DNA of 64,000 bases from a virus (IMGVR_UViG_3300026549_000032:96001-160000), one strand, 5' to 3'. Counted from the stretch's first letter, positions 49,031 to 64,000 are shown. The notes: generated by a model not told the origin, from the sequence alone. Program-made: numbers and translations.

Positions 49031-49060
49031 AATTCATTTGTAAGGAAAAGGATGACCGTT

Positions 49061-49390
49061 TTAGTCATCCTCATCTCTTGTTACATGTTGCTTCATCCAT
49101 TTACTCATATCTACTCGGTCATCTGGGAAATGAGCACTCCAACCTTGTCTGGCGATCTCTATAACAAAAACCTTTCCATCATCTCCATGTTGATTCAGGA
49201 TTGAATAGATGTAGTCTCGTACGTAATCTTTGTTTCGTTTACTTCTGAGACCCCAGGTTGTTTTTGTCAAGGCAAGTGCGGAACTTCCTTTCTCTTGTCC
49301 GAGACGAGTAAGACCATCTACGACAGCTTCAAACTTTTCTTTTAAGTTCTTTGCTTTATCGATCGAGAATGTTACTATGTATGTCTCCAT
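49061..49390 (-). CDS. Small protein, Cas2-like ferredoxin fold predicted
   Basis: TYIVTF..., TTWGL, KVFVIEI..GW pattern. Confidence 0.45.
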   Translation of the reverse strand: METYIVTFSIDKAKNLKEKFEAVVDGLTRLGQEKGSSALALTKTTWGLRSKRNKDYVRDYIYSILNQHGDDGKVFVIEIARQGWSAHFPDDRVDMSKWMKQHVTRDEDD

Positions 49391-49396
49391 CTCTCT

Positions 49397-49738
49397 TTAC
49401 TTGGTATCTAATATTAATTGCCATTCGGGATCTTCTGGACTACCAGTAAGCTCTTCTGCACTGGCTATTACTAGAGCACATGTTTGTACCTCCCACTTGT
49501 AGTACTTGTTGTATAGTTCGGTAATAGCTGCATCTAGTTCCGGAGTCATTGGTCCATATACATAGACCCAATCTGCATCAGTCCACCCTTCGTATTCATC
49601 TTCGTAAAATCCATCTTCACTTACGTAGACAAATCGATTTTCAGGGAACTTAGACTTTAGATCTTCCTGAATATGTTTCTTAATCCATCTCTTTGTCCAA
49701 AATCTATCGACCCAATGTGGTGTTCTTTTTCTTCCCAT
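49397..49738 (-). CDS. Hypothetical protein
   Basis: Probable ATG start MGRKRT. Confidence 0.55.
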   Translation of the reverse strand: MGRKRTPHWVDRFWTKRWIKKHIQEDLKSKFPENRFVYVSEDGFYEDEYEGWTDADWVYVYGPMTPELDAAITELYNKYYKWEVQTCALVIASAEELTGSPEDPEWQLILDTK

Positions 49739-49797
49739 CGTATGGCTAAAAAGTAATCCCGACCTCTGAGAGACCGGGACCACACAACACAAGTAGT

Positions 49798-50334
49798 TTA
49801 ATCCTCTTCCACAGGAGGCTGATCATCTGCCTTCGGAGCCTCCTCAGCGGCAGGGGCTGCATCAGATTTGGAGATTTCATCCAGTGCCTCGTTGAGCTTC
49901 GTTGAGAAGACGCCAGCAATGGTCTTGCTGTAATCAACGGCCTTCTTCAGACGGTTCTGGGCATCGATGGTCTGCTTGATCTCCTCGATCTTATCCGACT
50001 CCAGGAGAGCATCAACCTTCTCCTTCAGCTTGTTCAAGCTCTCATTCTCACCGAGGGCCTTCTTGAGGTCACTATAACCCCAGCGAAGCTTCTCCTTCAG
50101 GTCGGCGATAGTCTCTTCAGTTTTAGACTTCTTGCCGATCTCGTCCAGGATGTCAACAATCTGAGCATGAGAGAGATCCGGATTCTTGCGAATCGTGTCG
50201 ATGGCGATGTCCACCTTTTCCTCGTAGGTCTTCGGACGAAGATCATCTTTTACTTCGTTTACTAACTCGGTAGCTGCATCTTTTACTGCTGCTCCAATGC
50301 TGTTAAGTTTCTCGTTAATTGTTGTCCAATTCAT
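49798..50334 (-). CDS. Helical hypothetical protein
   Basis: 178 aa; CCTTATT at 50362-50368. Confidence 0.7.
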   Translation of the reverse strand: MNWTTINEKLNSIGAAVKDAATELVNEVKDDLRPKTYEEKVDIAIDTIRKNPDLSHAQIVDILDEIGKKSKTEETIADLKEKLRWGYSDLKKALGENESLNKLKEKVDALLESDKIEEIKQTIDAQNRLKKAVDYSKTIAGVFSTKLNEALDEISKSDAAPAAEEAPKADDQPPVEED

Positions 50335-50369
50335 AATTAATGGGTTTTAAAATTACTCATTAATAAGGA

Positions 50370-50525
50370 AAAGAAAGGGGAGGAGTAATTCCTCGCGCCG
50401 TGAGTCATCAGAGTCTTTAATGCAAAACAAGTCATTGATTGGCGGCGATACCCATTCTCTCTCCCCATAATAGAAGGCCGCCTTCGGAAAAATCTAAACT
50501 TATGGCAGGACAGCGACCTCCTTGT
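50370..50525 (-). ncRNA. Candidate small structured RNA (~155 nt)
   Basis: Follows a CCTTAA motif (50531-50536); GGCGGC/GCCGCC stem; ends in a hairpin plus pyrimidine tract. Confidence 0.3.
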
Positions 50526-50549
50526 CAATGTTAAGGGTTTTAGGGGAAG

Positions 50550-51290
50550 GAGGAAAAAAAATAAAACGTCAACTTTCCATTAACCTTAGTCAGTCACTAT
50601 GCAGCGGCTAACTTTAGTCATTGGTCTGTATCCGTGTTATGTCTTGGTTGTGGAACCTATTACTCCTTAGGATTCCTAGTGAGTAATGATTTACGTAGGT
50701 TTCTTTGATTTTCATCACCTACTACCACAGTAATTTGTAACTTAGTATACCTGATTCCAACAGGTTCCTCTTCAGAAGCAAGTTCCAAAGTGTGCTGGCC
50801 CATATACACCAATCAAGTTATCGTGTTTGGGGCACTTAAAGGTGCGACTAGACATCCCACCTCTCCTTCACACCATCAGTCTTAAACACTGCGCTGCTTT
50901 AAGTGCCTGTATCGTTATAAAAGTGTTTTAATGTTCTACTACCGTGTCGCCCTTGGGGAAGTAGGTTAGTAGGGCAACTGACTTTTGACATCCTACACCC
51001 TCGATAATAGAACATTAAAGGTTGTTTTTGTTGTGTTAATCGGTTTTAGAGTATCCTCTTTCGGGCGATTATTCTCGTCCTAGTGACTTCATCAATTTTC
51101 TGGGCTGTGATGTCATCACTAGAGGTTGCTCTAATTTAGTTTGTTGTTTTGTGTTATAATATAAATTTCAGGTTATGAAGTGTTGGTATATGTTCAGGGT
51201 CTATGCAGATCCTGTTCCGGCCTAGCCCTTCAAGTGAAAGAGCTCTCAATCACTAGAGGGGTTCTGCCAGACCATATAACAACATTAGTT
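50550..51290 (-). ncRNA. Candidate large structured ncRNA (~740 nt)
   Basis: No ORF of 60 aa or more; TCTTATA motif at 51297-51303; perfect stems 50831-50841/50897-50907, 50927-50938/51008-51019 and 51080-51086/51116-51122; A/C-rich linkers and terminal U-tract on the minus strand. Confidence 0.65.
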
Positions 51291-51306
51291 CACAGTTATA
51301 AGATTT

Positions 51307-51669
51307 TCAGGGGATTGGTCCAAGATAGTTGGTTGCATCGTGTATAGATACATGTTTTGTTCCTTTCTCTTTTGCAATCTTTAATCGCAGGAGGACACCA
51401 ATCACACGATCAGTGTCGTTCCCGTAATCCTGATCTATCTCACCTGTAAGGAAATCAAGCTTTTCCTTGACGTCCTCAATCATAAGATTTTCAGGGGCCT
51501 TCTCTGGGTAGAGGTCTGTATTGTAGGTTAGTCCACATACCGGACACTTGAATTGTCCAAAGGAGTAACCATCAAGATCCTCTAGCATCCCATGGAAGGT
51601 TTCTTTCCTAGTGATACTAATATTTGTCTCTCCCCCACAGATGGGGCATTCAACCTTCTTATTATTCAT
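51307..51669 (-). CDS. Zn-ribbon protein
   Basis: CPICG, CPVCG. Confidence 0.65.
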   Translation of the reverse strand: MNNKKVECPICGGETNISITRKETFHGMLEDLDGYSFGQFKCPVCGLTYNTDLYPEKAPENLMIEDVKEKLDFLTGEIDQDYGNDTDRVIGVLLRLKIAKEKGTKHVSIHDATNYLGPIP

Positions 51670-52847
51670 ATTCGATAATAAGGATATCGTCTTTGGCGTC
51701 TCTCGTTAGTGAGGAAGATAGCCTGACCGAATAATCCTATGAAGGACAGTACCACGACCGTCCAGAGTATAGTGGATCTTTGTCCACTCGTCAGGAAGGA
51801 CTTAATATAGTCAAAGTCATGGAAAGGCTTACGATTCCACATGGATAAGTTTCCCTCAATCCAGTAAGATAACTTTTCTAAGTCAAACCTCGGATTAGAC
51901 AAGAGAAATTCTTTACACTGAATGTCCATGGTGATGTCGTCTTGCCAAGAGAAGCACCTAGCCCATCTAATGGAATCTCTTGAATCCTTTCCGATACAAA
52001 CTACGAACTCATTCTTATTGCCTCCCTGCCAATAGGCTCGTTGGTCTTCACTAATGGAAGCTCCTTTCTCCCAAGGCCAGACTAAGACGAACACATGAAT
52101 CTGCTTGTTCATCCCGTAATAGGCATTGATGAAGTTAAATCTTTGAGTGTCGTAATGAGAGGCCTTGATTCCAATGATTGGTGAATTCTTTGCGGTAGGA
52201 TAATCGTAGAGACCTAGTTCTTTCGCTTCCTCCTTGGAGACTTCTCTTAAGCGGAAAGCACTTTGACTTCCTAAGAGTCGATTTTCATAGGAGTGAGTCG
52301 TGGTGAAGGTTTCACAGGTCTGCCAGGATCCATCCCAATCGTACTCTTGTGCATCACCATCTATTCGATAGTAGTTTCGATGCATATCAATGAACCTCAT
52401 TGGTGTACCCCATCTTCTTCTAAGTTCCTCGAACTCCTCTCGATCAATATAAATGTCATCACCTTTATTGTCATATTTCAGCCATCTCTCTGGGTGATAT
52501 TCTCGATAGGAACAATCATAGGTCTCGGTTCTGTACTTAGTGTTTCCTTTGCTGTCAGTTCCATCGGGAACTTCTCTAGTACAAGTCCTATGAATCCACT
52601 CATCCCATTCGTCGGTATGGCGGATCTTTGTGATGTAGTAAGAGAGGTATTCAGTATCACTGAAGTTACTGTGCCTCATTCCCAGAGACATCCCCAGCAC
52701 GATCAAACCTATAATAAAGGTTGGAGCTAAGCCAATCACAATAATTGATCCTAAGGTATGATCCTGATGAATATGGTTTCCTTGGTATAAGTAATAAACT
52801 AATACTCCTGATAATACGAAAGGAATTAATAATACTAATGCTTCCAT
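51666..52847 (-). CDS. Phage membrane protein (393 aa)
   Basis: Two N-terminal TMs and one C-terminal TM; YWQGGNKNE motif. Confidence 0.75.
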   Translation of the reverse strand: MEALVLLIPFVLSGVLVYYLYQGNHIHQDHTLGSIIVIGLAPTFIIGLIVLGMSLGMRHSNFSDTEYLSYYITKIRHTDEWDEWIHRTCTREVPDGTDSKGNTKYRTETYDCSYREYHPERWLKYDNKGDDIYIDREEFEELRRRWGTPMRFIDMHRNYYRIDGDAQEYDWDGSWQTCETFTTTHSYENRLLGSQSAFRLREVSKEEAKELGLYDYPTAKNSPIIGIKASHYDTQRFNFINAYYGMNKQIHVFVLVWPWEKGASISEDQRAYWQGGNKNEFVVCIGKDSRDSIRWARCFSWQDDITMDIQCKEFLLSNPRFDLEKLSYWIEGNLSMWNRKPFHDFDYIKSFLTSGQRSTILWTVVVLSFIGLFGQAIFLTNERRQRRYPYYRI

Positions 52848-52990
52848 ATAAAAATCCCCATGACCCGTTTCCAGGCCACAGGGCTTTGTTTTATGTTAAT
52901 GAAGTGTTGCCTTGTTGGTTATTACCATTGTTGTCCATAAACCACATAGCAACGACCATAGCTATAAATATCGCAAGATAGAATCCCCAA

Positions 52991-53533
52991 TCAATTGAAG
53001 AGATCGACATTGTCGTCTACTTTAGAGTCCATTACGCTCTTTGTAGTAGTTGAGGAGATAACCTCCCACTCGAGTTTCTTTCGTCCTCCTAAGAACCACT
53101 TAGAGGGAACGACGTCAAGCATGTTGTTGTGCTCTCGAACAATGTCTATGATCTTAGTCTGCGCATTCAAGAACTTCTGGCGTTCCACTTCAATAGCTAC
53201 TGATAGGTCTTTGTACAAGTCTGCCGTAAACTGAGGATTAGACTCCTGAATCCAATTCATCAGGACACCATCATTCTTGTCATACCTAGCGGAAGTGATG
53301 TGAGTATAGATGCTGTCAAATTGAGCAGCATACTCCTTACTTACACCAGCCTTCTGTTGAATTGTTTTCCACATGTTGTCGTGGACAGCCTCAATCTTAG
53401 ACTTCTGAGACTCAAACTCGTTAACGTACCGAACTTCATCATTCTGATAACCCCAGGCAGTAGCCATAGTGATAACAGCGAAAACAATGATTCCGGCAAG
53501 GGCGATTAACCCAATCAATAATTTCTTACTCAT
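52991..53533 (-). CDS. LemA-like membrane-anchored protein
   Basis: N-terminal TM, WIQESNPQ, helical bundle ending PSKWF. Confidence 0.6.
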   Translation of the reverse strand: MSKKLLIGLIALAGIIVFAVITMATAWGYQNDEVRYVNEFESQKSKIEAVHDNMWKTIQQKAGVSKEYAAQFDSIYTHITSARYDKNDGVLMNWIQESNPQFTADLYKDLSVAIEVERQKFLNAQTKIIDIVREHNNMLDVVPSKWFLGGRKKLEWEVISSTTTKSVMDSKVDDNVDLFN

Positions 53534-53979
53534 CTTCTTTTAAATTTTCTTGGACGATCAAACTTACGAATATCTGCTCTCAACTTATTCTGAATCTCAT
53601 ACTTAAGCTCGGGAATGAGAATACTTGTATCAACATCCCAGACATAAGTCTTGTGCTGGTTTCCATGAGTACCAAGGACCTCGATCTTATACAAGTTCTT
53701 TTCCTTCTCCTCATCATAACCAACCAAGTTAATTCTAAGCTTATCAGCATACCAGAACTCACCGTTTCCGATGGATTCTAGATAAATACGACCCTCTAGG
53801 CCGGTGTCAATGTCTATGACCTCTCCTATCTTTCCTTCCTGGTTGAAGTAGTTGATAAGATTTCTAGTCACATCTTTGTCGATGCCTACCATGGCTCTGG
53901 CATAAGCATCTCTAATGTTTCCCATCTTCTTTCGAAGATCAATTAGGACATACTTTCTGTCTTCGTTTTTTCTGAACAT
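53530..53979 (-). CDS. Hypothetical protein
   Basis: 149 aa in operon. Confidence 0.65.
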   Translation of the reverse strand: MFRKNEDRKYVLIDLRKKMGNIRDAYARAMVGIDKDVTRNLINYFNQEGKIGEVIDIDTGLEGRIYLESIGNGEFWYADKLRINLVGYDEEKEKNLYKIEVLGTHGNQHKTYVWDVDTSILIPELKYEIQNKLRADIRKFDRPRKFKRR

Positions 53980-54230
53980 ATATACGATTTATAACTAACA
54001 TGTTCGTGGAACTTTGATCCACCTTTCTTTTGTCTGGCTCCCTTCGATTGGTATTTATCCCATCTCTGGTAAAGACAACCATCCTTCTTTGAGACATGTT
54101 GTTTTAAAGTCACAAGTCGGAAATACCAGGCAACGGCTATTCTCCACTTCCTGATCTTACCACTACCCGTCTCAAAGGAGAATTCAATTTCCGGAGGAGT
54201 TCCCTTCAGGTATCTTATTCCTACCTTCAT
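53943..54230 (-). CDS. Hypothetical basic protein
   Basis: 95 aa in operon. Confidence 0.55.
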   Translation of the reverse strand: MKVGIRYLKGTPPEIEFSFETGSGKIRKWRIAVAWYFRLVTLKQHVSKKDGCLYQRWDKYQSKGARQKKGGSKFHEHVSYKSYICSEKTKTESMS

Positions 54231-54825
54231 TCTTTCTGATTATGATAAGTTCATTTTCACCGTAATTAAGGAGGAGAGTCCCAAGTTCTCCTAAGACGCT
54301 CTGTCCCAAGAGGTTAGGTGACTCTACGCTCCTTCCGACGAAGACTTTCACACCATGGACAAGTATATTGCCAACGGAAAGTGAATCCACGGTAACTACG
54401 GCCTTCGTATGTTCAAAGCCATCAGCATTTACAGTCACGACGGAGTCCTCATCAAGAGTGGTCTCCTTAATGAAACCATTTCTCAGGAGGAAAGCATACT
54501 CTGCACGTCCAATCTGAACGTCACTACAGCCCGTGTCAAGGATGAACTTTGTTGGAACACCATTAACGTGGACTAGGAGATACGCCGTTCGACCTTCTAC
54601 CGTGAGAGGCACACGAATCGTATCAAGCGGACTCTGTATTGTTGCGACAGGTTCCACTTTCACTGTGTCTGTAACAGTAGAGTCTTTCTTAGTTCCGAAG
54701 TGATCTTGGATAAACTGCATACTCTGCTGTGGCCAAGTAGTCATTATAAACGCTATACAACCTATTATAATAAATAGGATCAACCAAAATTTAATGTGAT
54801 AATTTTTCTTTTTACCGTATTTCAT
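54184..54825 (-). CDS. Membrane-anchored retropepsin-like aspartic protease
   Basis: VNGV...FILDTGCS, LLGQSVL. Confidence 0.9.
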   Translation of the reverse strand: MKYGKKKNYHIKFWLILFIIIGCIAFIMTTWPQQSMQFIQDHFGTKKDSTVTDTVKVEPVATIQSPLDTIRVPLTVEGRTAYLLVHVNGVPTKFILDTGCSDVQIGRAEYAFLLRNGFIKETTLDEDSVVTVNADGFEHTKAVVTVDSLSVGNILVHGVKVFVGRSVESPNLLGQSVLGELGTLLLNYGENELIIIRKNEGRNKIPEGNSSGN

Positions 54826-54827
54826 AT

Positions 54828-55118
54828 CTACACATAAGGCTTTTCCCTCGGACGAAAAGAAAAAGAGTCCAAGTCAATTCGCTTGTCTCTCTTTCTATCG
54901 TATTTCTTCTTGTCCTTGTAAACTCGGTTCATGGCTACCCACTTACCATCATTTCTCTCAAGTTCCTCATCACGGGCAATCATTCTCAGTATCTTATACT
55001 GGTCATTGCTCTTAGTTGGTTTGCTCTTTTTCATTTTCTTGTTGCTGTTGAGCTTTAACCCTGGCCGCCCAGGCTGCTGCTCGTTGTCTTTGTAGTTCTT
55101 CGGCCTTTTCTTTTTCAT
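54828..55118 (-). CDS. Highly basic small protein
   Basis: VYKDKKKYDRKR motif; true start may be internal. Confidence 0.5.
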   Translation of the reverse strand: MKKKRPKNYKDNEQQPGRPGLKLNSNKKMKKSKPTKSNDQYKILRMIARDEELERNDGKWVAMNRVYKDKKKYDRKRDKRIDLDSFSFRPREKPYV

Positions 55119-55494
55119 GCATCAATGAATCTCTGACTTCTCTTTTGCCTCTTGCCCATCCACGAGACTCAGCAAAGATGACTTGCTGTTCCATGGAATC
55201 TTCTATCTCGTACTTAACTTTTCCTACCATATCCTCTGCCATTCTAGCCTTCGAATAGAAATATACACTAGGGAAGAATCCGACAAGTATGATAATAGCT
55301 ACTTCTACAGCGAGACCCAAACATGGAATCTTTACACGGAAATAAGCTAGGTATACGAAACATTCTTTAATGAATAGGACAAGGTTCTTTATAAAAAGCC
55401 ATATAGATTTCAATATCATCCTGCCTCTTGTTTTTACTTTTGTTGACTTTAATACGTCGTCAATGTGCTGTTGAATTATTTCTTTACTTTCCAT
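55012..55494 (-). CDS. TM plus coiled-coil protein
   Basis: 160 aa; CCTTATA at 55499-55505. Confidence 0.65.
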   Translation of the reverse strand: MESKEIIQQHIDDVLKSTKVKTRGRMILKSIWLFIKNLVLFIKECFVYLAYFRVKIPCLGLAVEVAIIILVGFFPSVYFYSKARMAEDMVGKVKYEIEDSMEQQVIFAESRGWARGKREVRDSLMHEKEKAEELQRQRAAAWAARVKAQQQQENEKEQTN

Positions 55495-55633
55495 CAGCTA
55501 TAAGGCAGTGAAGGAAAGGAAAGGACCTATTAATATAGATCCTCATCCCCGAATGCAATATTCGGTGTTGTTTATTGAAAGAACACATACGAGCTATGGA
55601 CTTTTGACAACACTTTATACTTCTGCATTCTGT

Positions 55634-56779
55634 TCATCTGTTAATGCTAGTAATGGCAGAAACAGAATTTGTGACCAACTTTGTGTTCGTAGTGAACTGC
55701 TGCAGGTCCCTTGCTCCTGCATATGACATCGCTGATCGTAGGTAATCTGTGAAATTCTCGACCCAAGCCTGCATGGTATACTCAACATCAAGTGTTGTTT
55801 CAATGCCCTCGCTCGTATGAGTCTTTTTACCGTTCATGGCTAACTGGCCACGTTTGGAAGCCATGCCATAGAACGTCTTCTTGATAGTGACCGGCCCGAG
55901 AAGGGTATTATCATCCTTCCACGCCATAAACTCGCCACTACCAAAGGTAACCCTATAGGTACCCATGAATTTCGTTAGATCATCTTGTTGTTGTTTGTCC
56001 TCGGGATCAACCCAAGAGACGGTTCCGGGAGCTGCGCTTTCTAGCATCTTAGTGAAGACAGAGCCAATCATGACTCGATCCGCACCCAAGGCTAAAGCTT
56101 TGATGGCGTCACTATATCCACGTACTCCTCCATCAGCCACTATGAGCGGAGTAGTATGGACCAATTGACCGCCTTCAGTTAACAGCCGCTTCTTAATGGA
56201 AGAAATCTCATTCAGGAGAGATGCCATAGGATATCCTACCCCAGTATTGGAAGAGGTTATGCAACCACGACCAACCCCTATACCGACTCGTACGTAATCG
56301 GCACAAGCTCTAGCGGCCGCTAGATAGGTTTCGGGATTCGCTATGTTCCCTACCATGACAATAAGATTCTTCGTCTGGGCCTTGGCTGAACGGACTAGGT
56401 TGTATAACTTTTCCATATGACCGTTCGCTATGTCAATGAGGACACGGAAGAACTTTCCATCCCATCCGTCCCAGATTGACTTTACGAAATACTCCTCAAA
56501 CTCTCCCAACGACATAGCCACCCAATACCCAAGACTGAGTAATTGGAGACGATCTGTAAGGGATTCCGTTCGAGGGATGATCGGTGTTATACCCTGAGCG
56601 ACCCAGAGATCCATATTATTAATCCCAATAACCGAATCCATCGGTGCCGTGAAGAGAGGAAGTTTATTAGTTCCTTCCTCTACGTAGGGATTGCAGTCTT
56701 TTCTTGAATCAATGGGGCTGACTGCTGCCGGTACAATTGAAACATCTTTATAGGAAAATTTCAATTCTGTATCTAACAT
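55634..56779 (-). CDS. IMP dehydrogenase / GMP reductase family protein (no CBS domains)
   Basis: TAPMDSV, IDIANGH, VGIGVGRGCITS (catalytic Cys), ADGGVR, FYGMAS, SEG, LRSAMSYAGA. Confidence 0.9.
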   Translation of the reverse strand: MLDTELKFSYKDVSIVPAAVSPIDSRKDCNPYVEEGTNKLPLFTAPMDSVIGINNMDLWVAQGITPIIPRTESLTDRLQLLSLGYWVAMSLGEFEEYFVKSIWDGWDGKFFRVLIDIANGHMEKLYNLVRSAKAQTKNLIVMVGNIANPETYLAAARACADYVRVGIGVGRGCITSSNTGVGYPMASLLNEISSIKKRLLTEGGQLVHTTPLIVADGGVRGYSDAIKALALGADRVMIGSVFTKMLESAAPGTVSWVDPEDKQQQDDLTKFMGTYRVTFGSGEFMAWKDDNTLLGPVTIKKTFYGMASKRGQLAMNGKKTHTSEGIETTLDVEYTMQAWVENFTDYLRSAMSYAGARDLQQFTTNTKLVTNSVSAITSINR

Positions 56780-56874
56780 AACTTGTTCTTTATATTATAT
56801 TTTATTTTCCATATATAAGTAAAATAGAGGGACCGAAACGCGTTTCCTTGATTTCAAAGACCTTATTGATGACT

Positions 56875-57756
56875 ATGAAAGATAAAATAGTAGAAATCAT
56901 TGAAAAAATTAGGTGTTATCCTTTTAGTGATAACAGTATTGATTATGCAGAAAAAGAACTCCTGAATGAGTTGGAATGGGGTTGGACTTGGGAAGTAAAG
57001 AATTCCCTGAAACGACTAGAGGAACTTTACCAATTCGGAACAAGTTTCGATACCTCTCTGGAAGGGGATGTAGAGAAAATTAATAAGTGGGATAAGAAAT
57101 ATGATCAGCTAATGGACGACATATGTGATCGCTCACAGAGGTGGTATAGGAAATACGCCGAGGAGATGACCGATCATAAGAGACCCATCCTCCCCTTTGA
57201 TAAATGGGTTGTTGCGACCGATGAGGAACAAGCTATCTTCACAGAAAAGGAGAGGTTTATTATGGAGAGGGAACTTAGGTTTAGGTTAATCTCTCAAACT
57301 TTAAAAGTACGTAACCTAATGCATGAAGAAGATACTCAGGTAACTAGAATGATTGGTCTTCGGGAGATTCAACCTTATGGTATGTTTCATATCCTGGTGG
57401 GGGAAGGTGACGAACCTGAAACTGATTATGAGAATATGTATGCCTTCATAGAGGATCTTCGACCGATTCTCTGGCCCATGTCTTGCTTGACTGAATGGGT
57501 GACTGTTGGAGGAAAGAAGGTGTGCTGGTTATATGAGATGAAGAAGCATCTTTTCGGCCCAAAGAAGGTGGAAAACATAATCCCAGAGAGCGGTAGTGTA
57601 TGTGTTCAGTTCTTTGACAACACCTGTCAGTTCCTCGACCCACGTCGTATTAGTATAGAAGATGTTAATTTCATGTACGAGCATGACATTGATTGTAATG
57701 GGTTGATCCCTAAAGGGTTAGCTATGAACGCACTAGAGGAGAAAGTTTATGAGTAA
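56875..57756 (+). CDS. Hypothetical phage protein
   Basis: C-terminal LRPILWPMS...HDIDCNGLIPKGLA domain; CCTTATT at 56861-56867. Confidence 0.7.
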   Translation: MKDKIVEIIEKIRCYPFSDNSIDYAEKELLNELEWGWTWEVKNSLKRLEELYQFGTSFDTSLEGDVEKINKWDKKYDQLMDDICDRSQRWYRKYAEEMTDHKRPILPFDKWVVATDEEQAIFTEKERFIMERELRFRLISQTLKVRNLMHEEDTQVTRMIGLREIQPYGMFHILVGEGDEPETDYENMYAFIEDLRPILWPMSCLTEWVTVGGKKVCWLYEMKKHLFGPKKVENIIPESGSVCVQFFDNTCQFLDPRRISIEDVNFMYEHDIDCNGLIPKGLAMNALEEKVYE

Positions 57757-58477
57757 AGTAAGTGAGGCTTGGTACTTCGGAAACAGAGAATATTTAAGTG
57801 AGGAAGTTGAAAAGAACGCCCTTGACTTCGAAAAACTAATTGACCCTAAGCTCTGGGAAGAAGATGATGAAGCTGACACCAATGTAACTGGTTGGGGCAC
57901 AGTTACTCTGGACTTCTATGTTCCTGATAATGGGCTAGTATCGGCGGAGGTCGGCAAGACAAAAGTTGGTTATTTTACGGACTTCGATCACGGAATTAAT
58001 TATGGGTCAGACGGATTTGATTGGCCTGATCATACAAAAGTAAGCGACGAAATGTTAGAATGGTTTTTGAAAGGAAAGAATAAGAAGATGGAAGAAGAAA
58101 AAGAATTCCTCAAGCAGAGAGCAATTTTCTGTGGTCTACCCAACGTTTGGGTTATGTATAAAGATACTCCATACCTTGTCTTTGGATATGGGGCTGGAAG
58201 ACTAGAACTCTTGACTAGTCCGCTTAGTTCGTGCACATACCCAGAAGCTCCTCTTATCAAAGAAGTTCAAGTTATCCTAAGAAAAGAGGAAGACCTAAAC
58301 GAAGAGGAAAAGAAAGAGTATGCTAAGATTGGTATGACTGACGAGCTTGAGGACTGGATGAATATACATTGTGTGGATCATCGAGACTTAATTTCACGGG
58401 GCTGGGCCGTTGATGCTGTTAGTCTAGGAGACAAGAACCCGTATAAATACGGAGTATGCTTTGGAGGCTTGATATAA
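57749..58477 (+). CDS. Hypothetical phage protein sharing a C-terminal domain with the upstream gene
   Basis: VILRK...HCVDHRDLISRGWA. Confidence 0.7.
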   Translation: MSKVSEAWYFGNREYLSEEVEKNALDFEKLIDPKLWEEDDEADTNVTGWGTVTLDFYVPDNGLVSAEVGKTKVGYFTDFDHGINYGSDGFDWPDHTKVSDEMLEWFLKGKNKKMEEEKEFLKQRAIFCGLPNVWVMYKDTPYLVFGYGAGRLELLTSPLSSCTYPEAPLIKEVQVILRKEEDLNEEEKKEYAKIGMTDELEDWMNIHCVDHRDLISRGWAVDAVSLGDKNPYKYGVCFGGLI

Positions 58478-58830
58478 TACATATCGAAGTAAACGATTGG
58501 GATCCGACCGACAAAGAAAAAGAGTTAATAGAATACATAGAAGAGCAGGGCAAAGAGAATGACGGCTATAACTACTGTTGGACTATGTACGACATGGCTC
58601 AATACTACTTAATAACTACAACAAAGAGGTGGTTAATGGAACATGGATTTGAATCCTTGATTTCTCATGCTGCCGATTGGGGTTATCACTTATATTCACT
58701 CAGAATGTATCCCACTAAATTTACGGGAGAATTCTTAGATGGATTTGATAACGAGATTTATGCTGGGAAGGAAGAGATAAATAAGTGCCTCCTGAGAGGG
58801 ATAGAATTAGGATATCGTAAAAAGAAATGA
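58456..58830 (+). CDS. Hypothetical protein (MLWRL start)
   Basis: 124 aa. Confidence 0.65.
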   Translation: MLWRLDIIHIEVNDWDPTDKEKELIEYIEEQGKENDGYNYCWTMYDMAQYYLITTTKRWLMEHGFESLISHAADWGYHLYSLRMYPTKFTGEFLDGFDNEIYAGKEEINKCLLRGIELGYRKKK

Positions 58831-58857
58831 TATCCTTTTCTTTTTCTTATAGGTGAT

Positions 58858-59247
58858 ATGATATATAAATTTAGAATAAAACCAGAGTTAATGTGGTGGA
58901 GGTCTGGAAAAGATTATGCAACAGACAATCCACGTGACCTCTGGGAAGTAACTAATTATTTAATCGAAAGATCATTGAAAGAGTTTTTCGAATATAGGCC
59001 AATGACACTTACAGCCAAATATGAGATGGAACGTACTATAGAAGTAGCCATCGAAAAGTGCATACGAGGATATACAGGTAAATGTTCTATTGAACCTGAT
59101 TGGTTTGTACACCTAGTGGGAAGTTGGTATCCTGAAGCACTTTCAAATTATGGTGGGAGTATGGACTTGGTTATCTATAAGCCGGAGGAGTTAAAAGTAA
59201 TCATCAACTCTCTGATGGTGGCGAAGTACATGCAGAAACTCTTATAG
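58858..59247 (+). CDS. Hypothetical protein
   Basis: 129 aa; TCTTATA upstream. Confidence 0.65.
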   Translation: MIYKFRIKPELMWWRSGKDYATDNPRDLWEVTNYLIERSLKEFFEYRPMTLTAKYEMERTIEVAIEKCIRGYTGKCSIEPDWFVHLVGSWYPEALSNYGGSMDLVIYKPEELKVIINSLMVAKYMQKLL

Positions 59248-59251
59248 GTGT

Positions 59252-59650
59252 ATGGAAGAAAAGAAAATAAAAGACCTAGAAAAAGAACTACGAGAAGTAG
59301 ACGAAAGAAGAAAAGAAATCATTAAAGAAATGGCTGATCTCAGAGCTAAGATTGCTACTAAGAAGTTTAAAGATATGATAGGAGGGTGTTATAAGCATCC
59401 TAACTATTACTGTGGCAGTCCGAGGTCAGAGCATTGGTACATATACTCAAGAATAACTGGTATCTCTGGGATGGATTCTCTAGGGGATCCGATCTACGTG
59501 ACGGAATCTATTCAGAAGACTTGTGATGGAAGGATTGAATATAACCCGAATAATCATGAGACTATGAATAGTAATGACGTGGGTGGTTGGATCAAGATAT
59601 CCTTTGAAGAGTTTATGAAAGCAAGAACAGAAATCTTATGCTTGACTTAA
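59252..59650 (+). CDS. Hypothetical protein
   Basis: 132 aa, N-terminal coiled coil. Confidence 0.65.
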   Translation: MEEKKIKDLEKELREVDERRKEIIKEMADLRAKIATKKFKDMIGGCYKHPNYYCGSPRSEHWYIYSRITGISGMDSLGDPIYVTESIQKTCDGRIEYNPNNHETMNSNDVGGWIKISFEEFMKARTEILCLT

Positions 59651-60195
59651 ATTATAGGAACACAAACCCTGGGGACCTGGTACAGGGGAAGAAAACAGGA
59701 ACACTCCTCAGAGTCTTGAGGGTTGAGAAGGATGGCCTTTTCGTGGAGGGTTTCAAACAGAAAATTCAATACGAAGACGTAGAACCTTTCTGGATCTATC
59801 CCATTGAGAGGGTTGAAGCCCTAAAAGATATAATCATGGCTGACCCAAGAGAAGACATCGATGGAAAAGGAGATAAGAAGTATGAGTTCTGGTTTGGGGA
59901 TTATAAAGTTTTAACTTTCATGAAGTCGGTAGGTAATAAGGTTAGTGCTTCATGGAGAGAATATCTCCAGACGCCTACCAACCTAGATATTACCACAGAT
60001 CGTTTCAGTGATGTTCAAAGGATGTTCTTTGAGGCAAGTGATGGGTACAGAGAACTACCACTTACCCTTCCAAAACTACCAACCTTAAAGTGGAGGTGTT
60101 TGGGTTGTGGTCGAGTAATGGCTGAGCCTGGACCTCATAGATGTGGTAGTAACTTCCAAAAACATCACTTGACTTGGGAAAATTTGATACTATAG
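59638..60195 (+). CDS. Hypothetical protein with C-terminal CxxC..HxC
   Basis: 185 aa, followed by a terminator. Confidence 0.65.
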   Translation: MLDLNYRNTNPGDLVQGKKTGTLLRVLRVEKDGLFVEGFKQKIQYEDVEPFWIYPIERVEALKDIIMADPREDIDGKGDKKYEFWFGDYKVLTFMKSVGNKVSASWREYLQTPTNLDITTDRFSDVQRMFFEASDGYRELPLTLPKLPTLKWRCLGCGRVMAEPGPHRCGSNFQKHHLTWENLIL

Positions 60196-60241
60196 GGGAC
60201 GTAAAACACGTCCTTTTTCTTTTCACTCCCTTACCTCTGAA

Positions 60242-60469
60242 ATGAGATTTAATTTAATTTATAAAAGAATTAAAGATACAGATCCAATAGAGATTCCTAG
60301 TCTGGTGAGGGATGATGAAGGAGGAGCATTATCAGGACCAGAAGCTTATAAAGCATTCTGGAAAGCCTATAATGAAACTCAACGCACCATAAACGCGCTG
60401 ATATATCAGTTAGAGATGGTACGTGACTCACTTAACAAGGAATCTAATCAAACAAATAATATATGCTAA
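60242..60469 (+). CDS. Hypothetical protein
   Basis: CCCTTAC upstream. Confidence 0.6.
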   Translation: MRFNLIYKRIKDTDPIEIPSLVRDDEGGALSGPEAYKAFWKAYNETQRTINALIYQLEMVRDSLNKESNQTNNIC

Positions 60470-60918
60470 TCCGGATAACAAATCAGAAACTGATTCGTGA
60501 TGCACTGAATAGATTAGCAGACTTAATGTACGAAACTAATGGACACTACCTCAGGAAGGTTCTTTACGTGGACGATTACTTGTATCTAGGGCGACACGGT
60601 AATAATCTGAAGTACTCTGATAGGTTGGGCATAGTATGTGTAAAAGCATGGCAGAAAAATTGGAGAGAAGGTTACTTCTTAATGAAAGAATTAGCGACCG
60701 TCTTAAATTCTCAAACCCTCGCTCTACCTTTCGAAGAAGTTCAGAAAAGAATCTGGCAGGAAGCTGTTAATAAACCTTCTAATGTAGATTACCTAGAGTA
60801 CTTAGATAATGCTTACATAACTGTTATGAAGTTTAATAGCATTGTGTTCAATTGGTTTTGGGCTAACTTTTTACATCACTGGGACAATGTTGTGGCAGCC
60901 TATAGAAAGAAAACCTGA
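60463..60918 (+). CDS. Hypothetical protein
   Basis: 151 aa. Confidence 0.6.
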   Translation: MLIRITNQKLIRDALNRLADLMYETNGHYLRKVLYVDDYLYLGRHGNNLKYSDRLGIVCVKAWQKNWREGYFLMKELATVLNSQTLALPFEEVQKRIWQEAVNKPSNVDYLEYLDNAYITVMKFNSIVFNWFWANFLHHWDNVVAAYRKKT

Positions 60919-61393
60919 TGTTGTTATATCTATGGGGAGGTCCTATGTAGAGGATTTCCTCGCCTCAAAAAGAAAGATGAGCGAACAAATTCCCTCCTGG
61001 ACAACAATAGCTAGGTGGAGAGGTCATCCCGGAAGGGGGATAAGAGATTTTGGTTTAAATATAACAGATGCTCCTTTTACGAGAGAACTCTTACATGACT
61101 GGTGGGTACATGGAATCGTATCAAACCAGTGGAGAGGTGTCGATGGTACAAAAGCTTTGGAATTATTACCAAACAAAACTATTCATGACGCACTCCGTGA
61201 ATTTATCTACCCAGAAGTGAGTGGTGATTGGAGTGCTAGAGAGGAAAGAGAGGAGAAAGCTTTTGCGTTAGCAATTGTTAGGATAGACTCTCTATGGACT
61301 AAGTTTTGTGAATATTTTATAATTAGAAGATTAATATATGATAGAGTACAAAGAAGGGAACATTTTCACATCTCTAGCGCAGACTATTACTAA
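60887..61393 (+). CDS. Hypothetical protein (MLWQP start)
   Basis: Probable ATG at 60887. Confidence 0.6.
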   Translation: MLWQPIERKPDVVISMGRSYVEDFLASKRKMSEQIPSWTTIARWRGHPGRGIRDFGLNITDAPFTRELLHDWWVHGIVSNQWRGVDGTKALELLPNKTIHDALREFIYPEVSGDWSAREEREEKAFALAIVRIDSLWTKFCEYFIIRRLIYDRVQRREHFHISSADYY

Positions 61394-61967
61394 TACAGTA
61401 AACCTGATGGGAGTCATGGGAGCTGGCTTGGCGTTAGTCCATAAAGCCATATTTCCAAGGATGTATCAAACCTACAGGGACTACTGTAAGGCTGGTCAAT
61501 TTAAAGCAGGTCAGCTTTGGGTATGGGATCAGTCCTGGAAATGGCAGGTCTTAAACTTCCCGACGAAACGACATTGGCGTGATTGGTCAGAGATCCCTCT
61601 CATCGAAATGGGACTAATGAACTTAGTGAGAACGTATCAGGAGAGAGGAATAACTTCTCTGGCAATACCACTCCTGGGTTGTCAGAATGGTCACCTGAAA
61701 GAGAAGGATGTACTGCCAGTCATGGAGAAGTGGTTAGGACAGATGAATATCCCCGTAGAAATATGGAGACGAAATCCTGATGCCCCAAATCCAATCTGGA
61801 ATGAGCTTAAGTTTAAGTGTTCGGCAGGGAAGACAACTTTCGAGAGAATAGTTCTGGAATGTGAATCTTTCGAGGACTTGGTTAAACGACCAGGTATAGG
61901 AAGAGACTCTTGGGCTAAGGAAACAGGTAAAATACTAGGGATAGAGAAAGATGATATTCAGAATTAA
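61338..61967 (+). CDS. Macrodomain protein (DarG/Poa1p-like ADP-ribose hydrolase)
   Basis: GNIF, TNTVNLMGVMGAGLA, LNFPTKRHWR, SLAIPLLGCQNGHL. Confidence 0.9.
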   Translation: MIEYKEGNIFTSLAQTITNTVNLMGVMGAGLALVHKAIFPRMYQTYRDYCKAGQFKAGQLWVWDQSWKWQVLNFPTKRHWRDWSEIPLIEMGLMNLVRTYQERGITSLAIPLLGCQNGHLKEKDVLPVMEKWLGQMNIPVEIWRRNPDAPNPIWNELKFKCSAGKTTFERIVLECESFEDLVKRPGIGRDSWAKETGKILGIEKDDIQN

Positions 61968-62097
61968 TAATGATATATCTGACCTTGTCGGTTGGTATAA
62001 CGGAATACCTGTCATCCGAGTAGATCGAAGGGAATTGAAAAGAAAATATCTGACCTTCTTGACGATGCGAGATTTATTCGGAGTTCAGTTTATATGA
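61951..62097 (+). CDS. Mini-ORF MIFRI (48 aa)
   Basis: Hand-translated; ATGA-coupled to the next ORF. Confidence 0.55.
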   Translation: MIFRINNDISDLVGWYNGIPVIRVDRRELKRKYLTFLTMRDLFGVQFI

Positions 62098-62204
62098 AGT
62101 GGAAATTGAAAACGATAATTGCATCTTGGAAAGGGAAACAGCCCGTATTCCATGCAGAAAGATTTCCATTTCGTTTCTGGAATGAAATTTGGTTACCGGG
62201 ATGA
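62094..62204 (+). CDS. MxW mini-ORF MKWKL (36 aa)
   Basis: Hand-translated; ATGA overlaps on both sides. Confidence 0.6.
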   Translation: MKWKLKTIIASWKGKQPVFHAERFPFRFWNEIWLPG

Positions 62205-62368
62205 TTTGGAAAATAAATCAAACAGAAGAAATTGGGTACTCTATAACCCATGATAGACCTGTCTATAATTTTAGAAGGGAATATGGCCAAACAACTAGTA
62301 GCAATATATCTGATTGGTTTAAAGAATGGTATGGGAAGTTAAAAATACTAGAAGGAAACTTAGAGTAA
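62201..62368 (+). CDS. MxW mini-ORF MIWKI (55 aa)
   Basis: Hand-translated. Confidence 0.6.
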   Translation: MIWKINQTEEIGYSITHDRPVYNFRREYGQTTSSNISDWFKEWYGKLKILEGNLE

Positions 62369-62508
62369 CTGTTAAGATACCTTTTGGCAAAGTATCATCC
62401 AATGGGATAATATATAACAGTGAAGCTCTTCTTGAAGCGATCAAAAGCTGTAATGGCCTAGGAGAGATAACTCATAAAAGTTCTGACGGACTATGGTTTG
62501 GAGTATAA
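62326..62508 (+). CDS. MxW mini-ORF MVWEV (60 aa)
   Basis: ORF track; contains SNGIIYNSEALLEAI..GLGEITH. Confidence 0.6.
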   Translation: MVWEVKNTRRKLRVTVKIPFGKVSSNGIIYNSEALLEAIKSCNGLGEITHKSSDGLWFGV

Positions 62509-62726
62509 GCCAAGAGGTATTGTTTAGTGAAACCGTCGATAGATTCATGGGAGAATGGCAGAAAATACTTAGAGCGAGTATGCGTGCCTTCAGTGCTTCC
62601 ATGACAGTTGACTTGAATCCAAAGAATATAAACTATGTCACGAAGACTTCGACAGGAACGTGGATTCCAAGTCAGTATGACATAGATACGACTTTGGGAA
62701 ATAACAATATAGGATATTCGACATGA
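62493..62726 (+). CDS. MxW mini-ORF MVWSI (77 aa)
   Basis: ORF track; LFSETVDRF similar to the next ORF. Confidence 0.6.
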   Translation: MVWSISQEVLFSETVDRFMGEWQKILRASMRAFSASMTVDLNPKNINYVTKTSTGTWIPSQYDIDTTLGNNNIGYST

Positions 62727-62884
62727 CTTGGGAAGTAAATGCGATACTGTTTAGTAGGAAAGTTGATAGATTCTCTACTAAATTTAGAAGCTCTTTCCGA
62801 AAGGCAATGATGCTTTCCTACATGTATGGTGGGGATGGACATGTCGTATTTGATTACGAAACAGCAGGATGGAGTGGAAGTTAG
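62723..62884 (+). CDS. MxW mini-ORF MTWEV (53 aa)
   Basis: Hand-translated; LFSRKVDRF. Confidence 0.6.
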   Translation: MTWEVNAILFSRKVDRFSTKFRSSFRKAMMLSYMYGGDGHVVFDYETAGWSGS

Positions 62885-63123
62885 CGAAACTAGGAATGCC
62901 TAAGCGTTTTTATGATAAGTTAGTCAGAGATGGGAATATAATATTTGCTCCCTACATGCCACTAACTAGTACGCCAACCATAGGCAACTTCAGCAATCCC
63001 GCGCAAACCGTAAATACCAAATATTATTGTGCGGATACTACTATCTGGTCTTCTAAGAAGATACATACTATCCGTCCCTGCACGCTTGACGAGGGAGGAG
63101 ATAGTGACGTTAGTGAAACATGA
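62869..63123 (+). CDS. MxW mini-ORF MEWKL (84 aa)
   Basis: ORF track; contains GNIIFAPYMPLTSTPTI. Confidence 0.6.
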   Translation: MEWKLAKLGMPKRFYDKLVRDGNIIFAPYMPLTSTPTIGNFSNPAQTVNTKYYCADTTIWSSKKIHTIRPCTLDEGGDSDVSET

Positions 63124-63290
63124 CTTGGAACTTTTCAGACACAATGACCATGGCGATAGAACAGAGGGGAAAGATGGGAAGAGGTCCTAAAAGACCTAAC
63201 CTACTCTACTGTTTTAAGACTTGGGTTGAATTGAAAGAGAAAAATGAAACGCTTTTCAAGGCGTGTGAGAAGGAGCTTTTGAGGAAATGA
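63120..63290 (+). CDS. MxW mini-ORF MTWNF (56 aa)
   Basis: Hand-translated; ATGA overlaps. Confidence 0.6.
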   Translation: MTWNFSDTMTMAIEQRGKMGRGPKRPNLLYCFKTWVELKEKNETLFKACEKELLRK

Positions 63291-63391
63291 TTTGGAGGAT
63301 CAATCCAAGAAAACGGACAAGGACTAGTGGTGTGTTTATCTTGACCAAGGATGGACTTAAGCCTATAAACATTCCGAGGACATGGAAATGA
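63287..63391 (+). CDS. MxW mini-ORF MIWRI (34 aa)
   Basis: Hand-translated; ATGA overlaps. Confidence 0.6.
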   Translation: MIWRINPRKRTRTSGVFILTKDGLKPINIPRTWK

Positions 63392-63513
63392 AGTGGAATA
63401 TAGACATAGATATTTCAAAAGTCCTCCGCCTACGGAGATTAGAATTGATGATGTTTGAGTATTACATTAATCATGATCTGGGACGTATTAATCGAAGAAA
63501 TAGGACTTGCTAA
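63388..63513 (+). CDS. MxW mini-ORF MKWNI (41 aa)
   Basis: Hand-translated. Confidence 0.55.
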   Translation: MKWNIDIDISKVLRLRRLELMMFEYYINHDLGRINRRNRTC

Positions 63514-63598
63514 ACTAACCATCACTACTTCAACTAAAACAACAACTCATACATGTAAGTTGACGTTAATAACCTCCAGCGATGGTGTTAAACGTTGA
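63473..63598 (+). CDS. MxW mini-ORF MIWDV (41 aa)
   Basis: Hand-translated. Confidence 0.55.
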   Translation: MIWDVLIEEIGLAKLTITTSTKTTTHTCKLTLITSSDGVKR

Positions 63599-63606
63599 AA
63601 GAAGAT

Positions 63607-63816
63607 ATGAGGTGGGAGTTTAGTGAACTGGTTAATAGATATGTTAGTCCTCCTATCCCAACACTAGATGATATGTCTAACTTAACCTTCTGGGAAAACA
63701 CCAACAGTAATCTCAGAGATGGGATAAAGGCATACAAACAATTATTACACGTTTACAATGCTTTGGGAGTTAAACCTGATTTTGAAACCCATCCTGTGGT
63801 GGGCGAGGGATTCTGA
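63607..63816 (+). CDS. MxW mini-ORF MRWEF (69 aa)
   Basis: Internal ATG of track ORF 63595..63816. Confidence 0.6.
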   Translation: MRWEFSELVNRYVSPPIPTLDDMSNLTFWENTNSNLRDGIKAYKQLLHVYNALGVKPDFETHPVVGEGF

Positions 63817-64000
63817 GATTTTCATAGTAGACAGAACCACAGATCCGGTCACCCAAGTAATAGAAGATACAGATGCAGCCTGGAATAGCTATCATGAATA
63901 TCAAGCAAAGTACGGGACAAGACTCTTTCCAGAGTACCCAAGCAGGAATGACTGGTATTTTGCAGTAGCTATGACTATGCTTGAGAATGGTGATTATAAA
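63758..64000 (+). CDS. MxW ORF MLWEL (partial, runs off the window)
   Basis: Hand-translated; 81 codons with no stop. Confidence 0.55.
   Translation, partial: MLWELNLILKPILWWARDSEIFIVDRTTDPVTQVIEDTDAAWNSYHEYQAKYGTRLFPEYPSRNDWYFAVAMTMLENGDYK

Follow-up and report, generated by a model that had tools for sequence, protein, structure and literature searches.

Why should a long run of small and mostly dissimilar phage genes begin with the same spaced pattern of amino acids? We addressed this question at a locus of the virus contig IMGVR_UViG_3300026549_000032 from IMG/VR (218 kb, judged about 60% complete). Bases 96001-160000 of this contig form the window, that is, the whole stretch of 64,000 nucleotides (nt) that was analyzed; positions given below are those of the window and are counted on past its end. 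In the last part of the window, the initial annotation had described 12 successive open reading frames (ORFs) that begin Met-x-Trp-x-hydrophobic, and all 12 were found to be there. It had read them as a library of variable peptides that share an N-terminal tag. The explanation that we tentatively favor, at a little under even chances, is that these first five residues serve as a tag for addressing or docking, placed at the free N-terminus of proteins that probably act in host takeover or counter-defense.

The array and its common start

The array was found to consist of 17 consecutive plus-strand ORFs of 34-127 codons, located between 62094 and 64816 and running 816 nt beyond the window end. 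All 17 begin with ATGNNNTGG and have a T at nt 14, and the encoded proteins accordingly begin Met-x-Trp-x-(Leu/Ile/Val/Phe). The register of this tag is fixed from the start codon, with Met at residue 1, Trp at residue 3 and a hydrophobic residue at position 5, while residue 4 is acidic in five of the 17 tags. The initial annotation had left the extent of the array past 64000 to be determined, and five more tagged ORFs follow there (starts 64009, 64358, 64462, 64548, and 64706). Each of the 12 starts described initially is the first ATG of its ORF, except that of 63388, which in this genome only has an ATG 2 codons upstream.

Related starts also occur around the array. Six flanking genes have Trp at position 3 (58456, 60887, 65346, 66368, 67251 with a GTG start, and 67550), so that Met1-x-Trp3 is common to 17 array genes and 6 flanking genes, most of which also have the hydrophobic residue 5; the tagged genes together span 34-168 aa. 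Four others have Phe or Tyr at position 3 (58858, 60242, 61951, and 65167). The five upstream starts that the initial annotation had listed as related (58456, 58858, 60242, 60887, and 61951) are all present, each with Trp, Phe, or Tyr at this position.

The array genes are packed tightly. Seven junctions are ATGA stop/start overlaps, four are 16-nt overlaps, five are overlaps of 28-59 nt, and one is a gap of 8 nt. Six of the ATGA overlaps lie inside the window (62094, 62201, 62723, 63120, 63287, and 63388), the same number as had been counted before. At the 16-nt overlaps, which end at 62506-62508, 62882-62884, 64022-64024, and 64719-64721, the upstream protein ends (Trp/Cys)-x-Gly-x-stop; this ending looks like a by-product of the downstream tag codons read in another frame.

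We asked whether such an array could arise by chance. In the 2.6 kb of the array, ATGNNNTGG was observed 17 times against 0.67 expected (Poisson P = 1.5e-18). Among plus-strand ORFs of at least 30 aa, the tag was present in 16 of the 20 in the array but in 3 of the 988 from the rest of the genome (binomial P = 2.5e-37). On both strands, the motif was at chance level in those parts of the 218 kb contig that lie outside 155-165 kb. These counts, made at both the DNA and the ORF level, exclude chance and put figures on the improbability that had been claimed from the 12 starts. Reading TGA, TAG, or TAA as sense gave no long frame across 62000-64800, and an alternative genetic code was rejected.

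A second, looser plus-strand cluster lies at contig positions 181759-186989, about 22-27 kb past the window end. Its genes, of 98-206 aa, have an aromatic residue 3; Trp3 is present in two of them, and M-(I/V)-F is the start of four that lie within 2.5 kb. Apart from the array region and this cluster, an aromatic residue 3 was not enriched genome-wide. In two scans of IMG/VR for three spaced motifs, every hit was a simple tandem repeat or due to chance, with no comparable arrays outside the lineage at that sensitivity, and no description of the motif was found in the literature searched.

Selection on the encoded residues and exchange of whole genes

Six related metagenome contigs carry the array (L030, L035, and L037-L040), the last four of which were found via a macrodomain protein encoded upstream of it. 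L030, a Logan contig with 92% nucleotide identity, covers 62798-67437 and includes twelve array ORFs. Codon changes between these twelve and L030 amounted to 68 synonymous and 26 non-synonymous in the called frames, compared with 18 and 76, respectively, in the +1 frame. The changes were strongly biased to the third position, and indels were found only outside the array; three ORFs (63473, 64358, and 64548) are individually weak on this test. Judged by these substitutions, the array ORFs are real coding genes under purifying selection in their called frames.

In L035, the most distant relative, all 13 of 13 array ORFs start Met-x-Trp-x-(Leu/Ile/Val/Phe). Identity to L035 was 28-53% for the array proteins, 85% for the macrodomain protein, and 75-83% for two neighbors, and the mini-genes evolve about 3 times faster than the macrodomain gene. 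When starts were clustered into 17 array families and the flanking families, no orthologue without Trp3 was found in the 17 array families or in 6 flanking ones, and families with Phe or Tyr at position 3 keep Phe or Tyr in their orthologues. The initial annotation had named relatives that do not conserve Trp3 and the hydrophobic residue 5 as the observation that would speak against a shared tag; both residues are unchanged in L035. Its idea of a common N-terminal tag on variable peptides is strengthened by the purifying selection and by the presence of the tag in every orthologue found, including those that are only 28-53% identical.

We then considered whether the constraint acts on the amino acids or on the nucleic acid. 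Among orthologues, the mean pairwise nucleotide difference was 0.00 at nt 1-3, 7-9, and 14, and 0.12-0.35 at nt 4-6, 10-13, and from 15 onward, with the highest values at third codon positions. The invariant nucleotides are those specifying Met, Trp, and the middle base common to the Leu, Ile, Val, and Phe codons. L035 does not share the purine-A that this genome has at nt 10-11; its residue 4 can also be Gly, Phe, Leu, or Ala, indicating that nt 10-11 are free to vary. In some genes Phe or Tyr stands for Trp, which keeps the class of residue but changes two of the three bases. Efficient removal of the initiator Met is driven by Gly, Ala, Ser, Cys, or Pro at residue 2. These residues were absent from position 2 in the tagged genes, both here (0 of 23) and in L035 (0 of 15), compared with 42 of 219 genome-wide (P = 0.018). 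Because residue 2 is never one of the five, Met1 is probably retained, and this hints that it is a part of the motif.

Other ATGA-coupled operons of the phage lack the motif, as does the macrodomain gene, which overlaps the gene before it by 56 nt. At the 17 starts, the predicted accessibility of the RNA did not differ from that of controls, and neither a conserved RNA structure nor an extended RNA motif was found. We favor a constraint on amino acids because of the nucleotide pattern, the substitution of Phe or Tyr, the bias at residue 2, the coupled operons that lack the motif, and the unchanged RNA accessibility.

These data bear directly on the alternative that survives best, a signal at the level of translation, in which the first five codons or the nascent peptide would aid restart or early elongation at starts that lie within the gene before, in a host that lacks Shine-Dalgarno pairing, and would have no role in the finished protein. 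Such a signal would explain the strict register from the ATG. As the array starts are placed within the preceding ORF (overlaps of 4-59 nt) or directly next to it, they lack a separate upstream context. The phage makes no use of Shine-Dalgarno sites, which precede 17 of 234 contig genes compared with 30 of 234 genes in a control window. Protein yield in E. coli depends on codons 3-5, with Lys or Asn followed by Ile or Tyr favored at codons 4-5 (Verma et al. 2019, PMC6920384), a pair that several array members possess at the same positions. However, this translational ramp is a general property of expression in which Trp is not favored, and tryptophan goes unmentioned in PMC6920384, whereas the motif here is common to the genes of one operon and is missing from other coupled or overlapping genes, including the macrodomain gene. 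Moreover, the nucleotides between the fixed positions vary freely among orthologues, residue 4 is not kept in L035, the change from Trp to Phe or Tyr preserves a residue class and not the bases, and the starts show no signal in accessibility or structure. We therefore consider a translation signal, which the initial annotation had listed as an option, unlikely; in particular, it is unlikely as a general need of coupled starts, given the motif-free ATGA-coupled operons and the lack of conserved RNA structure.

Beyond their first residues, the mini-proteins have little in common. The median z-score was 0.07 over 153 pairwise comparisons of the bodies, and no similarity was detected as protein, as DNA, or across frames except between 62493 and 62723, which agrees with the earlier impression of mostly unrelated bodies. 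A simple tandem repeat or array of paralogues was rejected, as the copies are not alike along their length outside this one pair. Searches of the mini-proteins against all contig ORFs (blastp) gave nothing below an E-value of 0.01; PHROGs gave no family match at E < 0.06 for the ten ORFs tested (61951 to 63388); and Pfam gave no match even to E = 10, save a sub-threshold one to Portal_T4. For the mini-proteins and most neighboring genes taken together, PHROGs and Pfam matched nothing except the macrodomain. An exhaustive search of representatives with the 127-aa member found two homologues, both tagged, and word-based searches with the 88-aa and 168-aa members found lineage-restricted matches only. 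Tandem duplication is active at the locus: a tagged family of 148 aa is doubled in L039 (15124-15986) and L040 (10393-11273), and one of 100 aa has two copies here and three in L037 (10328-11254).

The next alternative in rank is that the common start is a relic that also serves folding: a single ancestral cassette would have been duplicated in tandem and would have diverged fast, with the N-terminus kept for the hydrophobic core of each protein. The 62493/62723 paralogues and the duplicated or triplicated 148-aa and 100-aa families are what this predicts. The mini-proteins are also rich in Trp (4.2% compared with 1.6% genome-wide; Lys, 9.0%), and a few large hydrophobic residues carry the folding of very small proteins. 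But the lengths range from 34 to 168 aa, and the bodies of all but one pair lack similarity in every comparison made. A core element would allow shifts of register, yet Trp is always residue 3. Structure models made with AlphaFold2 (AF2) place the N-terminus differently in two families, and an unrelated replacement cassette in L038 and L040, described below, again starts M-I-F-x-L. This explanation appears improbable to us.

When the six loci were aligned, four clear differences between relatives emerged. L035 and L038-L040 have an extra tagged cassette of 41-44 aa after the 63120-type gene, which is missing here; L038 has a 219-nt deletion that removes 63388 and 63473 between two ATGAAGTGG repeats; L035 has lost the 61951 cassette; and in L038 and L040 three cassettes are swapped for one unrelated cassette of 44 aa, the one with the M-I-F-x-L start. 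In all four events, the junctions fall at the motif ATG at both ends. Gain and loss of cassettes among related phages, which had been put forward as a check, thus takes the form of whole mini-genes gained, lost, or swapped at the ATG. Junctions at the ATG could come from microhomology at the repeated start, from selection for intact overlapping genes, or from both.

That ATGNNNTGG itself is kept as a crossover site for the shuffling of cassettes, with any effect on the protein being incidental, is in our estimation very unlikely. It would account for the position of all four pairs of junctions, and shuffling mediated by promoter-early stem-loops (PeSLs) is documented in T4-type phages (PMC2839356, PMC4122927), where, as here, small variable ORFs are bordered by a short repeated motif at which indels and replacements have their junctions. 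However, 6-7 fixed bases with variable ones between them make poor homology, the gene order is otherwise stable across relatives, and selection for intact overlapping genes would favor borders at the ATG without any further signal. The invariant T at nt 14 between free nt 13 and 15 points to an amino acid class. PeSLs are intergenic and combine a promoter with a hairpin, whereas the locus has no intergenic space and its repeat consists of first codons with protein-like conservation. We rejected PeSL-type cassettes because neighboring genes share 4-59 nt, the only hairpins are those that bracket the unit, and promoter-like sites in the region are no more frequent than expected from shuffled sequence. 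The earlier proposal of a DNA- or RNA-level cassette is supported as far as the junctions are concerned, all of which lie at the motif ATG, but not for the conservation of the motif, as the nucleotide pattern fits selection on amino acids.

The idea that the peptides mimic portal, protease, capsid, or other virion proteins as bait for host immune sensors has one weak match in its favor, that of the 35-aa ORF at 64358 to Pfam Portal_T4 (residues 16-34, E = 0.044, 12.9 bits against a cut-off of 22.9 bits), and appears largely refuted and highly improbable, since a profile of the six 64358 orthologues finds no portal among solved structures and the match is treated as chance, no PHROG, other Pfam family, or ORF of the contig was matched at the thresholds given above, and T4-type portal, capsid, and protease genes were not found on the incomplete contig.

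The probable transcription unit, its neighbors, and the putative host

The array lies in a block of about 4.5 kb with 22 tightly overlapping plus-strand genes (about 60242 to about 64816) and hairpins at both ends. The unit contains 60242, 60463, 60887, the macrodomain gene, 61951, and then the 17 mini-genes. The hairpin after the array is very stable (z = -4.9) and is kept in relatives. The features of the region are as follows.

58456..58830, plus strand: 124-aa Trp3 gene of the upstream unit; orthologues in L035 and L037-L040 keep Trp3 and the hydrophobic residue 5; 52% identical to L035
58858..59247, plus strand: 129-aa gene with Tyr3 (M-I-Y-x-F); Tyr3 kept in 6 of 6 orthologues
60194..60216, plus strand: terminator-like hairpin closing the upstream unit; RNA-library contigs end nearby
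60242..60469, plus strand: 75-aa gene with Phe3, first of the 4.5 kb unit; 83% identical to the L035 orthologue
60463..60918, plus strand: 151-aa gene of the unit, untagged (Ile or Val at position 3)
60887..61393, plus strand: 168-aa Trp3 gene, residue 5 Pro or Leu; homologues lineage-restricted only
61338..61967, plus strand: DarG-like macrodomain protein with a C-terminal extension, untagged; Pfam Macro, E = 7.5e-9
61951..62097, plus strand: 48-aa cassette with Phe3; start overlaps the last codons of the macrodomain gene; absent in L035; in L038 and L040 the unrelated 44-aa cassette takes its place
62094..62204, plus strand: mini-gene 1, 36 aa; ATGA overlap; absent in L038 and L040
62201..62368, plus strand: mini-gene 2, 55 aa; ATGA overlap; absent in L038 and L040
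62326..62508, plus strand: mini-gene 3, 60 aa; AF2 model of low confidence
62493..62726, plus strand: mini-gene 4, 77 aa; 16-nt overlap; tandem paralogue of mini-gene 5
62723..62884, plus strand: mini-gene 5, 53 aa; ATGA overlap
62869..63123, plus strand: mini-gene 6, 84 aa; 16-nt overlap; 3 synonymous and 0 non-synonymous changes relative to L030
63120..63290, plus strand: mini-gene 7, 56 aa; ATGA overlap; followed by the extra tagged cassette in L035 and L038-L040
63287..63391, plus strand: mini-gene 8, 34 aa, pI 12; ATGA overlap
63388..63513, plus strand: mini-gene 9, 41 aa; ATGA overlap; deleted with mini-gene 10 in L038
63473..63598, plus strand: mini-gene 10, 41 aa, the least constrained; 41-nt overlap; 3 synonymous and 4 non-synonymous changes relative to L030
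63607..63816, plus strand: mini-gene 11, 69 aa; 10 synonymous and 4 non-synonymous changes relative to L030
63758..64024 (window end 64000), plus strand: mini-gene 12, 88 aa; AF2 model with a predicted local distance difference test score (pLDDT) of 76
64009-64392, 64358-64465, 64462-64575, 64548-64721, 64706-64816, plus strand: tagged genes past the window
64798-64829: conserved terminator-like hairpin after the array

Mini-gene 10 is absent in L038, and in L039 no tagged orthologous ORF was found for it.

Contigs assembled from metatranscriptome libraries cover the array in three studies. In three runs from two of these studies, a single contig extends from about 60252 to about 64794, with breaks at the bracketing hairpins. 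Upstream RNA-library contigs end at 60179-60201, some with adaptor sequence, new contigs start at 60252-60305, and neighboring contigs have different word depths (15, 69, 33, and 183). These contigs give a hint of one polycistronic RNA that carries 60242 through the 17 mini-genes. In the same runs, the minus-strand neighbors (48000-56800) have a word depth 3-25 times higher than that of the array unit, and the breaks there are intergenic. The differing depths and intergenic breaks across 48000-60200 suggest real transcripts at different levels.

The closest solved structures to the macrodomain protein are the DarG macrodomains 5m31 and 5m3i (E about 1e-26), and from this homology the protein is probably an anti-DarT counter-defense enzyme. 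Its C-terminal extension is about 80 aa long.

The contig covers part of the genome of a huge phage sampled from the gut of ruminants (cattle and sheep), and the same DNA is found in bovine and sheep gut metagenomes of many studies. The conserved proteins of the contig link the phage to uncultured huge phages with sizes of 300-460 kb and show a more distant relationship to Cellulophaga phages; the phage collection of GenBank gave no DNA match. No tRNA genes were found on the contig. Regions 5' of start codons are A-rich and G-poor genome-wide, with a T at -1 in 55% of genes, a start-codon context that we infer to be the pattern of a Bacteroidota-type host. Together with the lack of enrichment of Shine-Dalgarno sites and the presence of the DNA in the bovine and sheep gut, this suggests a Bacteroidota host in the rumen. 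Downstream of the region, a 666-aa protein (68489-70489; 8489-10489 in L009) has no match in Pfam or PHROGs, and its homologues of about 47% identity occur in many IMG/VR phages of 300-400 kb, often in two copies per genome. The huge phages found via this neighbor have no array near that gene, nor elsewhere in the two records that could be searched.

What the common start may do

An address or docking tag fits the data because the register is strict, the Trp is invariant, the bodies are unrelated and evolve fast, and a probable counter-defense gene is the neighbor. We propose that Met1, Trp3, and residue 5 would together form one hydrophobic face, and that a single partner from the phage or the host would read it, so that many different and fast-changing cargos, probably host-takeover or counter-defense proteins, could be handled alike. 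The leading options for this handling would be loading into the capsid for co-injection, as with the capsid targeting sequence (CTS) of T4, or tethering to one hub; a shared turnover signal would be a weaker one. As a by-product, the repeated ATG...TGG coding sequence may mark clean borders of cassettes, so that mini-genes could change without harm to their neighbors. A stronger form of the proposal, namely a previously undescribed sorting signal in which one reader routes at least 23 unrelated mini-proteins to one destination, for example the capsid, and the coding sequence doubles as the cassette border, is possible but doubtful.

Several observations weigh against an address or docking tag. 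No reader of the tag was identified, and three fixed positions offer little for a specific docking site. The strict register fits an effect on early translation as well as it fits recognition of a free N-terminus, and because Trp has a single codon, RNA- and protein-level constraints are not fully separable at nt 7-9. The tag is restricted to a single narrow lineage of phages. On the contig, which is about 60% complete, searches for head genes of the T4 and HK97 kinds found none. The AF2 models of the N-termini, built from shallow alignments, are inconsistent, with residues 1-11 disordered in 62326 and residues 2-19 helical in 63758. The mini-proteins are predicted from their genes, and the RNA evidence consists of assembled contigs, which carry no strand, transcript ends, or expression level.

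Searches for possible partners and structures can be set beside these points. The contig was searched for candidate readers of the tag and for enzymes that process N-termini, but ClpS, peptide deformylase, and the S77 and S78 proteases were not found on it. Neither were Peptidase_S77, Gp23, and Portal_T4 on the part of the genome that it represents, and control genomes were also unmatched for the first two. The pLDDT of the two modeled families was 62 and 76, and neither Foldseek searches against the PDB and viral models nor the ESM Atlas yielded a usable match for the mini-proteins.

Among known systems, the CTS of T-even phages offers the closest analogy, though the array is not a member of that family. 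The T-even internal proteins are highly diverse defense proteins with the CTS as their sole common part (PMC3012670). In both cases, then, a short N-terminal leader is all that unites diverse, fast-changing small proteins (IPI, IPII, IPIII, Alt, and the polymorphic IP loci in T-even phages), and several of the T-even cargo proteins counter host defenses and are encoded in a variable locus (PMC3012670). The differences are clear. The CTS has about 10 residues and another sequence, whereas only Met1, Trp3, and residue 5 are fixed here. The prohead protease of T4 cuts the CTS off after Glu; residues 6-12 of the tagged families contain no shared Glu-containing motif and no conserved cleavage site. 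Unlike the T-even genes, those of the array do not lie beside head genes but form one translationally coupled unit with the macrodomain gene.

Signals for turnover offer a second comparison. ClpX N-motifs and ClpS N-degrons are short hydrophobic and basic patterns by which bacterial proteases and their adaptors read a free N-terminus, and about half of the tags fit the pattern 'hydrophobic-hydrophobic-basic-hydrophobic'. However, the ClpX and ClpS signals are degenerate and do not require Trp. Five of the 17 tags here carry the acidic residue 4. For ClpS in particular, Trp would have to be the first residue, so that the tag as made is no such degron, and, as stated, no ClpS gene was found on the contig.

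One invariant feature unites about two dozen small phage genes at this locus and gives experiments a direct handle, in the form of a single tag, a point mutant of it (Trp3), and a large number of natural cargos. To our knowledge, the majority of small early genes in large phages have neither an assigned function nor a handle for study. The locus also presents a clean natural case in which whole genes are exchanged at the start codon inside a translationally coupled operon. A reader of the tag, if found, would show how the fast-evolving effectors of a huge phage are sorted, timed, or delivered, and whether very short terminal labels organize phage microproteins generally.

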